Assembly (NCBI GenBank): GCA_037446635.1
Contig: JBBIIG010000074.1
Coordinates: forward strand, 1-18,859
Source of the DNA: a bacterium
GTDB lineage: Bacteria; Zhuqueibacterota; Zhuqueibacteria; Oceanimicrobiales; Oceanimicrobiaceae
DNA: 18,859 nt
Direction of reading: 5' to 3'
Position 1 is the first letter of the stretch. Every line of letters starts with the position of its first letter. A program made the position numbers. Of the stretch, positions 1 through 18,859 are shown piece after piece.

Positions 1-3000
1 TCTTTTTGCCGATGTGCACGTCGGCCCGCGCTGGCGAGTATTTAGTGAATTCAAAGTTGCCGGCATCACTGACAATGAGCTGCCCGCGCCGCCAACCGCC
101 CGCGATGAGCCAGACATTCAAAACCTGTTTGCGGAGGTTTGGTTTTTTAAGAAGGAAAGTACCCGAGTCGGTCTGCGCGGCGGCCGCCAGGAACTGCAAT
201 TCGGCAAACAGCGGCTGATCTCTCCCCTGGATTGGGTGAACACCCGGCGCACGTTTGACGGCGTGCGGCTGCTGGCCAATTTTCCAAAATGGAAACTCGA
301 TGGCTTTTTCACCTACGTGGTGCAGTTCGAGCCGGAAAAGCTTAATAGCGCCAATCACTCGCAGCCGTTTGTCGGCGTGTACCTTCAGCGCCCGTTGAAA
401 GGCAAAACGATATCGGCTTATTATTTGGGGTTGAAAGAGAACGATCCCATCATTGTCGATAGCCGCGGGATCGCGGGGGGCTTTTTTTACCACACCCTTG
501 GCGCGGCATTTGACGGCGCGGCCAAAAATTTTGATTGGACTAGCGAGGCCGCGTATCAGTTTGGGAGTTTTGGCGGGGACGACATTGCTGCTTATATGCT
601 CTCGCTGGAAGGCGGCTACACCGTCGCCAAGCTCGCAGTTAAGCCGCGGATCGCCCTCGGTTTCGATATCGCCTCCGGCGACAACGACCCTACCGATGAT
701 CAACAGCAGACCTTCAATCAGCTCTTCCCGTTGGGGCACGCATTTTTCGGTTGGGCTGATCAAGTGGCGCGGCAAAACATTCAAGCGCTCAGCCTGCTGC
801 TTTCGGCTAAACCGCACCCGCAGCTCGTTTGCAGACTCAACGCTTTTAAATTTTTTTTGGATGAAAGACGCGATGCGCTCTACAACGCGGCTGGCGCCCC
901 ATCTCGGCGCAGCCCCACCGGTTCAGCGGGCAAGGAGGTCGGCGCCGAAATCGATGCCGAGGTGACCGTTAATCTCAACCTCCACGCCAGTTTGGTGCTG
1001 GGTTACACTCGTTTTATGCCGGGTGATTTTATCAAAAATACTGGCGCGACTAAAACACACAATCTGTTTTATCTGATGGCGCCGCTGCGATTTTGAAAGT
1101 TCATCTTTATTAAAATTAAAGGACGATATGTCGAAAATCATCATTCGCAATTTATCCATGATGTTTCCCGGCAAGGAAAAGGGCGCCGCCATTCCTGTAT
1201 TGGAAAATATCAACCTCGAGGTGCGCGAAGGGGAGTTGGTGTGCATCGTCGGGCCCTCTGGCTGCGGCAAGTCAACGATTTTGAATATTGTTGGCGGGTT
1301 TCTAAAAGCTAATGCCGGCGAGGTCTTGATTGATGGCGCGCCGGTCACAGGACCGGACTTGCGGCGGATTTTTATATTTCAAGAAAACGGCGTGTTTCCC
1401 TGGCTCACGGTTGAGCAAAACATCTGTTTCGGTTTGCTCGACAAATCCTCGCATGAACGCCAGCGCATCGTCAATCATTACATCGAAATGGTCGGGTTAA
1501 CCGGCTTTGAAAACGCCTTTCCGCGCGAGCTCTCCGGCGGCATGAAGCAGCGGGTGGAAATCGCCCGCGCGCTGGCCGCTAACCCGGATGTGCTCTACAT
1601 GGATGAGCCGTTCGGGGCGCTGGATTTTTTGACGCGGCTGCGCATGCGCGCCGAGCTCATTCAAATTTGGCAGCGGGAGAAGAAAACGGTTTTATTTGTT
1701 ACCCACGATGTCGAAGAAGCCGTGCAGCTCGCCGACCGGGTCGTGATTCTGAGTCAACGGCCAGCCACCATTCGCAGTATTGTGGAGGTCCGGCTGCCGC
1801 GGCCGCGCGACCTCGACTCCCATGCGTACCTGGAAATTCGCGATGAAATTTTCGACACCATGGGACTGGATCCTTCCGGAAGGAGCGCCGACGCCGAACG
1901 CGAGCGTGAAACTGTCAGCGCGTCGTTTGTGGGCGGCCCCATGCGCACGAAAACGCTGGATACGGATGTGCTCATCATCGGCGGCGGCCCGGCCGGATCC
2001 GTGCTGGGCGCTTATCTTGCCCACGCCGGCGTCCAACACATTATTCTGGAACAGGCGCACTATCCGCGCCCGCACGTCGGCGAATCACTGGTATGCTCGA
2101 CCACCCGCATTCTGCGGGAAATTGGTGTTCTGCCGGAATTGGAACGTGCGGAGTTTATTGTCAAACGCGGCACGTGCTGGGCCTCCTGGTTTGACCGAAA
2201 TGAAATCGATCTGCCCTTCGATCATGCGGATGATCTGAATTTTTCGTTTCATGTCGATCGCGCGCGCTTCGATGAGCTATTGTTGAAACATTGCTGTGAA
2301 AAGGGGTCGCGGGTGTTAACCGGGGTGCAGGTGGAAGCGGTGGAATTCAATCGCAAAGGCTTTGCCAGCGGCATTACCGCCAAAGTGGGCGAGTCCAAAT
2401 TTCGCCTGCATGGCAAGATGGTGGTGGACGCCTCCGGGCGCAAAGCGCTGTTGGGGCGTCAACTGCGGCTGATGAAATCCGATCCGGACCTGCGTCAGTT
2501 TGCCGTCCACAATTGGTTTATCGACGTCAATCATAGCCAGCGTGATAACGCCGATTTTTCTCATATTTATCTGCTGCCCATTCGCCGCGGCTGGGCCTGG
2601 GAAATTCCCATCACCAAAGAGATAACTTCGGTTGGAGTGGTAACCGACCGGGAAAATTTTGTCAAGGCTGGCGAAGATGTGCCGGCTTTCTTCCGCTGGA
2701 GTACCAGCTTGAATCCGTTGCTGGCCGAGCGCCTGAAGAATGCGGCGCCGCTCCGCGAGTTTCGCCTGGATGGCAATTATAGTTATATTATGGAACGCTT
2801 CGTCGGCGACGGCTGGCTGCTGCTGGGCGACGCCGCTTTTTTCATCGATCCGATTTTCGCTTCCGGGATGAGTGTGGCGATGCACTCCGCGAAATTTGCC
2901 GCGCAGGCCATTCCGGACGCCCTTGCCAAGAACGACGTCAGCGGCGCGGCTTTGAAAGAGTATGAAAGCAAATTGCTCGCGGGCGCACACGTGTGGCGAG

Positions 3001-18000: not shown

Positions 18001-18859
18001 AATATTCCAGCATCGATGTGAGCAAGGCCAAACCGAAAACTGAAACGCCGGCGCCGATCAACTTGCAGCAAAGCCATCCCGAGATTTGGAAAAAATACTT
18101 AGAATTAAATAACAGCGCGTCAGGGTTGCATGAGAAATTTTAGGAACACCGAAGAACTCCTCCGCGCGTTTCGGCGCGCCCTCGACCCCCAGACGCTCAC
18201 CGCGGACTTTGAAAGTTTGTTTCACCGAGAATATCCGGCGCTGGGGTTGGAGGTAACTGGCTGCCGAGTGGGTCAAGTGTATCACAAGCCCGGCAAAGCC
18301 TGTGAAATTACCTATCATTTGCAGGGGTGGGATCGAAAAAAACAGCCGTATGAAAATTGGTTTCATGGCAAATTGGCAATGGAAAAAGCAGCGCCGCCGA
18401 CTTTGCAACAAGCAGGCAGTTGGCCCGGCTGCGGTTTTTGGAAACCGCAGATAGTCTGGCCAGAACTGAATATGATCCTGTACGCTTTTCCGTACGATCC
18501 CAAGCTTCCCTATCTGGGCCAACTTTTGGAATCCGGTTTTGTTAAGAAAATTATTACGGAAAACCTCTCGGCGTTTGGTTTAAACAATGACTGGAGCTGC
18601 CAGAAAGTAACCTGCCAGCCGGTAAAATACCGTTTTGGAAAAAGTTGCACCCTGCGCTACCAGGTCGAGATGAGCCAGGGCGGGACGAATCAAAAAATAA
18701 GTTTTTACAGCAAGACCTATCATTCTAACCAAAGCCGTTATGTTTACGACGTGCTTCGACGGGTCTGTGAAAGCCCCCGATGAAACCACGGCCCTTTGCG
18801 AGTGCCGCCCCCGATTCACCATCTCGATGACGCGATCACTTACTGCCAGACGGCGTGGG

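Follow-up and report, generated by a model that had tools for sequence, protein, structure and literature searches.

A flavin halogenase fused to an importer ATPase in a gene cluster predicted to make a halogenated envelope glycoconjugate

The window, that is, the whole stretch of DNA analysed here (contig C74, 18,859 nt), is occupied by 15 open reading frames, as found by ORF calling, all of them on one strand:

2..1096, + strand: alginate-export-family porin, C-terminal 364 aa (PF13372 model positions 39-394)
1128..3221, + strand: g03712, NitT/TauT importer ATPase plus PltA-type flavin halogenase, 697 aa (ABC_tran, FAD_binding_3, Trp_halogenase)
3253..3501, + strand: acyl carrier protein 2 (ACP 2), with a VDSMG motif (PF00550)
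3515..5230, + strand: fatty-acyl-AMP-ligase-like enzyme (PF00501; best NCBIfam model PRK09192)
5223..7103, + strand: DUF3179 protein with CERC (CxxC) and a C-terminal extension (profile match)
7122..8849, + strand: g03716, second halogenase-like flavoprotein (GxGxxG, YKLG Lys, WxWxIP)
8846..9835, + strand: LpxL-fold acyltransferase 1 (Lip_A_acyltrans; His126 kept)
9851..11188, + strand: APH-fold kinase-like protein (PF01636)
11185..12606, + strand: APH-fold kinase-like protein (PF01636)
12603..13640, + strand: GT4-type glycosyltransferase, 55% identical to the next GT4 on contig C15
13661..14686, + strand: LpxL-fold acyltransferase 2 (Lip_A_acyltrans)
14775..15764, + strand: LpxL-fold acyltransferase 3 (Lip_A_acyltrans; an alternative start may be 14739)
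15803..17365, + strand: secreted protein with a T9SS-type C-terminal domain (TIGR04183, above cut-off)
17397..18143, + strand: PAPS-dependent sulfotransferase (PF13469, PF00685)
18130..18859, + strand: third APH-fold kinase, N-terminal part, cut at the contig end and continuing on C15

Profile searches recovered the carrier protein, the fatty-acyl-AMP-ligase-like enzyme, the DUF3179 protein, the three Lip_A_acyltrans proteins, the GT4 glycosyltransferase, the sulfotransferase and the T9SS-type domain, all as listed in the genome-wide survey's note; the two APH-type kinases it counted are present as well, but the window holds three. The DUF3179 protein appears to be an accessory of the cluster: its gene was not found adjoining the cluster in the related genomes G155, G156 and G166. 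DUF3179 figures among the known selenoprotein families, with the motif UxxC/T, in Table 1 of PMC13188914. Rfam gave no match in the window, in contig C91 or in the first 20 kb of C15, the promoter scan was about at chance (14 versus 13.1 expected) and the terminator scan near chance (37 versus 27.9 +/- 5.8).

Both ends of the window interrupt a gene. The N-terminal 101 aa of the porin form the end of C91, with about four codons absent between the two contigs; the halves fall 12 bp apart when placed on locus L008, and the gene is intact across the junction in five relatives. The porin gene follows the genes for the importer's binding protein and permease. At the other end, C74 and C15 share a 131-nt overlap with six mismatches, one of which is a stop at 18781-18783 in the third kinase, where C15 encodes Cys; the kinase gene is uninterrupted in G154 and G166. 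The linked gene set is conserved in G155, G156 and G166, and a single contig (G155:C115) carries nearly all of it, minus the DUF3179 gene and two GT4 genes. Because the porin gene is split between C91 and C74, the kinase gene between C74 and C15, and the set stands together in G155, it is well supported that the three contigs are one cluster of at least 45 kb, carried by what is probably a KSB1 bacterium, with the window in its middle; the linkage of C74 to C91 had previously been regarded as unproven. A contig from run X3 also spans window positions 1-5180, beginning 1585 nt upstream.

The domains reported for g03712 were confirmed (ABC_tran 25-162, FAD_binding_3 278-615, Trp_halogenase 367-633), so that an importer ATPase (about aa 1-245) is followed by a variable linker and a halogenase (about aa 278-697). 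An independent contig from a close relative covers the gene and differs by one compensating indel pair only. The ATPase motifs are intact (Walker A at 42, LSGGM at 135, Walker B at 157, H-loop at 191), the best-scoring models are the importer ATPases SaoA, NtrCD and TauB, and g03712 is the sole ATPase in an operon with binding protein, permease and porin. Motifs, the match to the TauB/NrtD/SsuB class and operon context all assign this part to the NitT/TauT importers. We found no exporter membrane domain in g03712 and do not class it with MsbA-type exporters. For the C-terminal domain the nearest solved structures are PltA (E 3e-93), 5buk and ChlB4. Of the motif set compared (Fx.Px.Sx.G, GxGxxG, Lys and WxWxIP; PMC8407142), it holds GxGxxG at 285 (GGGPAG), WxWxIP at 489 (WAWEIP) and Lys346, which aligns with the PltA lysine in FPKKFG; the tunnel motif reads FIDPIFASG, Ala replacing Ser, and 51 of 51 fused relatives read FSSG. 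By GxGxxG, Lys346 and WxWxIP the domain belongs to the PltA type and has its catalytic motifs. No flavin reductase gene lies in the cluster; one is located on C31.

Contig C91 supplies the pyrrole module that had been described: a PigA-like dehydrogenase (455 bits, cut-off 500), an adenylation enzyme, an ACP, a halogenase and two MsbA-like ABC proteins. The pocket region of the adenylation enzyme matches PltF (E 8e-38) and PigI (E 2e-23) best, the main difference from PigI being Ile for Cys at the last position, and this PltF/PigI-like pocket identifies the predicted enzyme as an L-proline--PCP ligase. The C91 carrier is 48% identical to ACP 2, which the fatty-acyl-AMP-ligase-like enzyme probably loads (283 bits against PRK09192, under the cut-off of 600). 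Proline ligase, acyl-CoA-dehydrogenase-like oxidase, ACP and PltA-type halogenase are thus common to this cluster and to the pyoluteorin (PltF/PltE/PltL/PltA), Mpy16 and PigI/PigA pathways. Here, however, the halogenase shares its polypeptide with an importer ATPase, the annotated cluster genes show neither a ketosynthase nor a condensation domain, and LpxL-fold transferases, GT4 enzymes, kinases and a sulfotransferase come next.

Four halogenases had been assigned to the island, but we count two halogenase-like genes in the window and three in the linked cluster as a whole. The second one in the window, g03716, keeps GxGxxG, the Lys in YKLG and WxWxIP, lacks the S-x-G of Fx.Px.Sx.G, and has a counterpart of 70% identity in the G155 cluster; PltA (E 4e-12) is its top match in PDB, and no match named AetA appears in PDB, Pfam or NCBIfam. 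The supposed fourth member, on C17, adjoins a solute symporter-like gene, and C17 neither overlaps the cluster contigs nor has a gene in common with them; matches of its kind, at 27-34%, are common in the phylum.

The question arises as to what accepts the acyl groups. The motif HX4D/E is the catalytic dyad of LpxL; the three LpxL-fold acyltransferases share with LpxL and PatA the PF03279 fold and the catalytic His but lack the acid (HFGYSR, HLGYGR and HFGYSA, where 5kn7 reads HFGTWE), Arg taking its place in acyltransferase 1, and all score far below the LpxL cut-offs. One close homologue of acyltransferase 1 (P0130) is fused to a carrier domain. LpxC, LpxB, LpxK and KdtA have no match in this genome (completeness 97.28%), and LpxC is found in 0 of 20 genomes of the family versus 136 of 167 in the phylum. 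Since the genome is without lpxB, lpxC, lpxK and kdtA, the LpxL-fold enzymes, on sequence grounds, are predicted not to act on lipid A. The glycolipid with halogenated pyrrole acyls and sulfate put forward in the survey's note consequently survives in part: a carrier-bound pathway and a sulfated glycoconjugate fit the linked genes, but the lipid-A-type acceptor does not. Nor does the cluster look like a family-wide lipid A substitute, as an acyltransferase match, even a distant one, turned up in just 3 of 20 other genomes of the family and the cluster-bearing G154-G156 and G166 possess LpxC.

In the boldest form of the same note, the ATPase-halogenase couples halogenation to moving an outer-membrane glycolipid similar to lipid A, by flipping or export. 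An MsbA-like pair and LpxL-fold enzymes do share the cluster; yet the fused ATPase is of importer class and follows its own binding protein, permease and porin, the MsbA-like proteins are complete with ATPase domains of their own, and LpxC, LpxB, LpxK and KdtA were not found. We regard this version as largely refuted and highly improbable.

The best explanation overall, which we hold at about an even balance, is that pyrrolyl-ACP is halogenated at the importer, after which a surface glycoconjugate carrying sulfate and phosphate receives the acyl group. The PltF/PigI-like ligase would load proline onto the C91 carrier (ACP 1), and the PigA-like dehydrogenase would convert prolyl-ACP 1 into pyrrolyl-2-carbonyl-S-ACP, the likely substrate of the PltA-type domain of g03712, which would be kept at the importer's cytoplasmic exit. 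The other two halogenases may act on the pyrrolyl group or on the group loaded onto ACP 2 by the AMP ligase. The three transferases, presumed to be ACP-dependent, would pass the acyl groups to a sugar or glycolipid; four GT4 enzymes would assemble this acceptor, the APH-fold kinases and the sulfotransferase would modify it, and the MsbA-like pair would flip the product. Meanwhile the importer would deliver its cargo, likeliest halide, beside the halogenase. Taken by themselves, the chemical steps from proline through halopyrrolyl-ACP to glycoconjugate seem to us slightly better than an even proposition. Halogenated pyrrole decoration of a cell-surface sugar or lipid is probably the role of the cluster, and its gene content leads us to expect a halogenated glycoconjugate in the envelope of this uncultured, apparently lipid-A-free lineage.

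A precedent for such a transfer is provided by the aryl polyene lipids and xanthomonadins: an ACP-bound chromophore passes to the sugar of a membrane lipid, which is moved outward, as described for aryl polyene lipids in 10.1101/2020.12.19.423268. The present cluster differs in having no ketosynthase set, in using a pyrrole, in an MsbA-like pair that replaces ApeM, and in its sulfation and kinase genes. Alternatively, the cell may export the product as a diffusible halopyrrole glycoside or metal-chelating metabolite and recover it through this importer. Importers inside biosynthetic clusters often recapture products, a TolC, an MFP and a MacB-type permease lie within the cluster on C15, where they may export the product, and fused cassettes also occur within NRPS clusters of Blastocatellia. 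However, the binding protein is 64-81% identical between clusters with very different enzymes and even cluster-free genomes, a pattern better suited to a small cargo common to all, and LpxL-fold and MsbA-like proteins suggest a membrane-bound product; we find recapture improbable. In G154 the pyrrole module and the fusion are both present, yet no gene of the LpxL fold turned up, so the product seems to differ between lineages.

The ATPase-halogenase fusion is not rare, contrary to what had been thought: 115 of the 120 best homologue clusters (query included) carry PF00005 together with PF04820, and the fusion forms a single ORF in at least 51 of 72 metagenome loci. In a tree, the fused halogenase domains are one clade (support 0.999); the fused ATPases are not (AU p 7e-147, 15 versus 14 rows, tested with 29 selected rows and a quickly built tree), and between L159 and L154 the halogenase is 94% and the ATPase 42% identical. 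One halogenase clade thus appears, from these sequences, to have moved between two distant importer subfamilies. Among the top 120 homologues, each of the 116 ATPase parts is similar to one of these two importer types (at least 53% identity), and the binding proteins encoded upstream of the 51 fused loci are of the U/C-HLTC type in 14 and the TCE type in 26, with none seen in 11.

Could the halogenase domain mainly regulate the ATPase, as a C-terminal sensor for halide, flavin redox state or oxygen? The C-terminal extra domain of NrtC/CmpC is regulatory, and the halogenase occupies its position. These importers have the same class of binding protein, permease and ATPase as ours, and 3UN6 is the structure nearest to our binding protein; here, by contrast, the extra domain is an enzyme rather than binding-protein-like, the binding protein has a probable selenocysteine, and every NCBIfam score lies under its cut-off. 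Also in favour of a sensor, no carrier-protein gene was seen in the available sequence of several fused loci (for example L169, L172, L177, L185 and L204), and Arg replaces the catalytic Lys in seven fusions, both sets of counts together. The Lys is nevertheless retained in 49 of the 51 fused loci and in 88 of the 94 fused proteins left after motif filtering (from 120), the linker from H-loop to GxGxxG varies widely (80-160 aa), and the phylum's fusions adjoin a complete pyrrolyl-ACP supply without another close PltA homologue. A sensor as main function therefore strikes us as quite improbable.

What the importer carries can be approached through its binding protein. Its gene on C91 has an in-frame TGA at codon 54, within the motif U-H-L-T-C near the N-terminus, at a site where Cys and TGA codons interchange among homologues: 76 motif matches (in 71 of 76 GTDB loci) read TGA 32, TGC 27 and TGT 17 times. 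Because this TGA aligns with a conserved Cys and the genome encodes SelA, SelB, SelD and tRNA-Sec, the protein is probably a selenoprotein with Sec54. The predicted folding energy of the 63 nt downstream of the codon is -21.9 +/- 3.8 kcal/mol in 40 TGA genes versus -13.8 +/- 3.4 in 51 Cys genes, and the TGA genes have a stable hairpin with constrained synonymous sites, a comparison made without a shuffle control; the hairpin loop predicted here does not have the G that starts the apical loop of the canonical bacterial SECIS. The TGA makes gene callers truncate the binding protein. Four of 167 phylum genomes carry this protein, all four with TGA and all four with the fusion. It represents a probable selenoprotein family that is not among the 119 families of the 2026 catalogue (PMC13188914, Table 1).

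The model of the binding protein (pLDDT 90.8; 40 for a single-sequence model) has 3UN6 as its best fold match, and pocket residues His121 and Cys227 are invariant across both importer types. PMC13592312 places 3UN6-like proteins near bicarbonate and nitrate binders, calls their substrate unknown, and models a metal site of two Cys and one or two His in a relative. We infer that Sec54, His121 and Cys227 make up a metal site of Cys2His type, resembling that of 3UN6, within a family of anion binders, and because of this combination the protein probably captures a small anion. Halide is to our minds the single likeliest cargo, though tentatively and at well under an even chance.

An alternative keeps the same biosynthesis but has the importer carry a soft metal (Cu, Zn), a thiol or an organosulfur compound, the fusion merely anchoring or co-expressing the halogenase at the membrane. 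The Sec/Cys/His pocket and the Zn bound in 3UN6, the nearest structure, suit such a cargo, and SaoA, SaoP and SaoX, from an importer proposed to carry organometals, are among the closest NCBIfam models. That system (SaoA/SaoP/SaoB/SaoX; Haft and Gwadz) is likewise an ABC importer with Sec in a binding protein, and our ATPase and permease score best with SaoA and SaoP. All scores are below cut-off, however (SaoA 245 of 360, SaoP 180 of 295, SaoX 51 of 300), SaoB is absent from the five best matches listed, and we do not place the binding protein in SaoB or SaoX. The Sec motif there is CU or TU at 191-192 (10.1101/2022.07.06.499078), whereas here it is U-H-L-T-C near the N-terminus, with a permease without Sec and an oxygen-dependent halogenase as partner. 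Distant relatives (33-34% identity) adjoin acyl-CoA-dehydrogenase-like and LLM oxidoreductase genes of the sulfur-scavenging type, which suggests organosulfur uptake. In addition, most importers of these types are unfused: the fusion occurs in 8 of 76 GTDB loci and, in the G167 order, in 3 genomes versus 42 that bear the importer, among 201.

Against a soft metal or thiol cargo, such a reading leaves unexplained why the halogenase clade stays fused while the ATPase swaps between two subfamilies that share a pocket, and why every ATPase part among the top homologues is of these two types; moreover, flavin halogenases are not known to need a metal. We consider this alternative possible but unlikely. 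We count the halogenase remaining fused while the ATPase is exchanged in favour of selection on the importer-halogenase link, and the fusion hints that uptake feeds halogenation. In the G167 order, other halogenase-like genes occur in 41 of 42 importer-bearing genomes versus 111 of the remaining 159, an association that disappears under a conservative control for genome size (p 0.45; p 0.016 under a milder one, the kin not being independent). In the G168 family, 4 of the 5 closest binding proteins accompany a fusion, which occurs in 0 of 146 other genomes, and 26 more distant binding proteins show no halogenase association (p 1.0).

Under the boldest extension of the halide reading, the cluster would contain a dedicated high-affinity halide importer: the Sec/zinc binding protein would take up scarce bromide, iodide or chloride, the halogenase on the pump's ATPase would consume it, and the unit would plug into many clusters, here one for a halopyrrole-acylated, sulfated surface glycolipid of a lipid-A-free bacterium. 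This we judge rather unlikely as a whole. The fusion bears on how halogenases are supplied with halide in halide-poor waters and soils, and a fused halogenase with an interchangeable importer offers a direct handle on both that supply and the cargo of 3UN6-type proteins; aetokthonotoxin production, for one, depends on bromide availability (PMC12210266). A search of the literature, which largely excludes subscription journals, found no paper on the ABC ATPase-halogenase fusion, this selenoprotein or halide importers in halogenase clusters.

Two neighbouring genes were also considered. A Na+/H+-exchanger-family gene adjoins unfused halogenases in G160 and G163 and might have substituted for the importer, but L152 has both exchanger and fusion; the accessible part of the chloramphenicol paper (PMC4249514) does not tie the exchanger-family gene to halide. 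The flavoprotein upstream of the L014 importer, a candidate AetF-like brominase, has no halogenase among its PDB matches.

Homologues of sat and cysC lie on C7, and within the cluster in G166. In the secreted protein with the T9SS-type domain, the N-terminal domain is SGNH-hydrolase-like, with GMSN and DGTH motifs, and could possibly transfer or remove acyl groups outside the membrane; its Atlas look-alikes (0.92), a lead only, are unnamed or sialate O-acetylesterase-like.

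The window, contig C74 in full, belongs to a 4.64-Mb genome (97% complete), carries 15 ORFs on its + strand and forms the middle of one cluster that runs across C91, C74 and C15. Its domain assignments in the genome-wide survey's note are borne out by Pfam and NCBIfam. Linkage of C74 to C91, which that note had left unproven, is supported by three observations. An alginate-export-type porin is split, its first 101 residues closing C91 and the remainder opening the window, with a gap of about 4 codons as judged from five relatives. In a related genome (G155) a single contig holds the cluster, similarly ordered but lacking DUF3179 and any match to two of the GT4 genes. 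Finally, a contig of a close relative from run X3 spans window positions 1-5180 with 444 differing letters and begins 1585 bases further upstream. This X3 contig has 1638 additional letters between the fatty-acyl-AMP-ligase-like gene and DUF3179 (window 5180-5230), probably one further gene. At the other end, the final 131 bases of the window overlap the start of C15 with 6 mismatches, one of them introducing the stop codon that closes the final ORF. Close homologues named candidate division KSB1 suggest that the host is probably a member of that group.

C91, in gene order up to the window: partial APH, DUF5666, APH, two MsbA-like ABC proteins, PigA-like dehydrogenase, proline ligase, ACP 1, halogenase, binding protein, permease
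Window 1128-3221, + strand: g03712, importer ATPase fused to a PltA-type flavin halogenase
Window 5223-7103, + strand: DUF3179 protein
C15, following the window: three GT4, APH, two-component pair, HprK-like, RtcB-like, DUF5666, TolC, MFP, MacB-type permease

The cluster holds three halogenase-like genes rather than the four once counted in the island, the gene on C17 being unlinked. Within the cluster, on C15 (L002:8629-11042), lie genes for an HprK-related kinase and for an RtcB-family protein, both kept beside it in G155 and G166; the latter puts an RNA-ligase-fold protein inside a glycoconjugate cluster. Further along C15, starting at about 21 kb, comes a distinct polysaccharide locus (L003:1010-12000; Wza-like, Wzc, Wzm/Wzt-like ABC, glycosyltransferases), a possible source of the acceptor glycan.

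The ATPase of g03712 has complete ABC motifs, and its best NCBIfam models are SaoA, NtrCD and TauB, every score lying below cut-off. Because these are importer-class models, and because a NitT/TauT binding protein and permease precede g03712 in an operon without another ATPase, we assign it, on sequence grounds, to the importer. For the C-terminal domain the closest match is PltA; GxGxxG, Lys346 and WxWxIP are all there.

The pocket of the cluster ligase is closest to those of PltF and PigI, from which we infer that proline would be converted to pyrrolyl-S-ACP. This could then be halogenated by g03712 at the importer (for PltA chemistry, see PMC8407142). The halogenated acyl group would be moved onto a GT4-built, phosphorylated and sulfated glycoconjugate, by analogy with the ACP-to-lipid-sugar transfer outlined for aryl polyene lipids (10.1101/2020.12.19.423268), and the MsbA-like pair may flip the product.

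The acceptor is not lipid A. No member of the LpxC, LpxB, LpxK or KdtA families turned up in the 97% complete source genome, and LpxC was found in none of 20 further genomes from the family versus 136 of 167 from the phylum (a tally that takes in the unpublished G158 and G162), in agreement with the lack of lpx genes stated for KSB1 clade IV in PMC9012183. The three window acyltransferases, sole PF03279 members in the genome, retain the His and lack the acid of HX4D/E; a carrier domain is joined to one of their homologues. Despite the missing lipid A genes, the genome encodes porin, TolC and T9SS-type proteins. A PltA-type gene without the fusion directly adjoins such an acyltransferase in G049, G050 and G064, with ACPs nearby and, in two of the three, glycosyltransferases. 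This pairing suggests that halogenase, ACP and acyltransferase are the core, and the importer an add-on.

The fusion had been thought rare, yet it is widespread: 115 of the best 120 homologue clusters have both PF00005-type ATPase and halogenase domains. Ten candidates were checked among 76 GTDB loci, and 8 of the 76 encode it as a single ORF; of 72 metagenome loci at least 51 do so, and contig ends cut most of the others. Our filter for fused loci required GxGxxG and WxWxIP but not the catalytic lysine, which is retained in 49 of the 51 fused metagenome loci and in 88 of the 94 filter-passing fused proteins. Within the phylum, the C91-type binding protein occurs in 4 of 167 genomes, always with TGA and always with the fusion; in G156 the contig carrying the fusion ends at the permease, and G163 has a cut-off candidate. 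In the family of G168 the fusion accompanies 4 of the 5 closest binding proteins. These two sets may overlap the GTDB loci and the counts are not pooled. At L013:11851-13173 a decayed fusion stops shortly past GxGxxG, its importer genes intact.

Two importer types carry the fusion, with U/C-HLTC or GLTCEAP (TCE) binding proteins that are about 25% identical and have the first Cys, His121 and Cys227 in common. Fused halogenase domains form a single clade, and the fused ATPases do not (AU p 7e-147, 29 chosen rows). Between L159 and L154 the halogenases are 94% identical versus 42% for the ATPases; a chimeric assembly could explain one such case, but the mixed type recurs in seven further loci (L180, L182-L184, L193, L195, L199). 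Directly after both importer types, the opposite strand repeatedly encodes a small (about 140-residue) membrane protein (L154:12244-12696, L166:6302-6727, L176:2401-2817, L079:15047-15445), also seen in 8 GTDB loci. TCE-type fused cassettes adjoin a gene for a flavoprotein like g03716, the window's second halogenase-like protein, in L153, L154, L157, L160, L168 and L191; L154, L160 and L168 additionally show ketosynthase-like, ACP or reductase genes (named by inspection) and resemble an aryl-polyene-type cluster.

Its gene and the host's machinery mark the binding protein as a probable selenoprotein. Codon 54 is TGA in the context LPVT-U-HLTCPV (L001:10374-10376, on C91), and the genome encodes SelA, SelB, SelD and tRNA-Sec. 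Across the 76 GTDB loci, 76 motif matches in 71 loci read TGA (32), TGC (27) or TGT (17); five loci had no match. The downstream hairpin is stabler in TGA than in Cys genes (-21.9 versus -13.8 kcal/mol; 40 versus 51 distinct sequences, uncontrolled for shuffling or kinship), but the predicted loop of the C91 gene has no canonical G. Gene callers begin the protein after the TGA, leaving fragments of 277-293 residues in the protein collection. Identity with SaoB or SaoX was rejected, and the family is absent from selenoprotein Table 1 of PMC13188914. Each part of the cluster is a known fold; we found no account of the combination in the papers searched, and selenoprotein prediction lists in supplements could contain the binding-protein family. 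New here are the co-occurrence of the fusion and the probable selenoprotein in a single operon, the exchange of domains, the cluster's extent over three contigs and the lack of lipid A.

What does the importer carry? The binding-protein model (pLDDT 90.8) best matches Zn-bound 3UN6, and position 54, His121 and Cys227 are invariant among 101 Cys-type homologues, whose alignment numbers them one higher. In PMC13592312, 3UN6-like proteins stand close to those that bind bicarbonate or nitrate; a metal site of two Cys and one or two His is modelled, and the cargo is given as unknown. For the importer, a small anion held at the metal site is the most probable cargo. A halide is a tentative candidate, and a metal or thiol an equally tentative one. 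Several findings weaken a simple halide reading. Most importers are unfused: in the order of G167, 201 genomes include 28 with a TCE-type importer, 14 with an HLTC-type one and 3 with the fusion. Other halogenase-like genes occur there in 41 of 42 importer-bearing genomes versus 111 of 159 others, but the association is lost under conservative genome-size control, and distant binding proteins in the G168 family show no halogenase enrichment. The importer lies mostly amid unrelated genes in Thermoanaerobaculia and Verrucomicrobia, distant plasmid relatives adjoin flavin oxidoreductases of sulfur-scavenging type, and no carrier-protein gene was seen in the DNA examined around several fused loci. 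The TCE and HLTC importers never share a genome in the G167-order sample, which fits a shared cargo, but chance alone would give about 2 co-occurrences, and G169 contains both types.

Na+/H+-exchanger-family genes lie beside halogenases in related clusters (L141:335-1813, L139:12982-14448, L152:1901-3187), as likewise in chloramphenicol and glycopeptide clusters, and their product is a candidate second halide-handling route. A relative of the C17 gene, encoding a halogenase-like flavoprotein, is present in 152 of the 201 G167-order genomes and therefore looks like a housekeeping enzyme.
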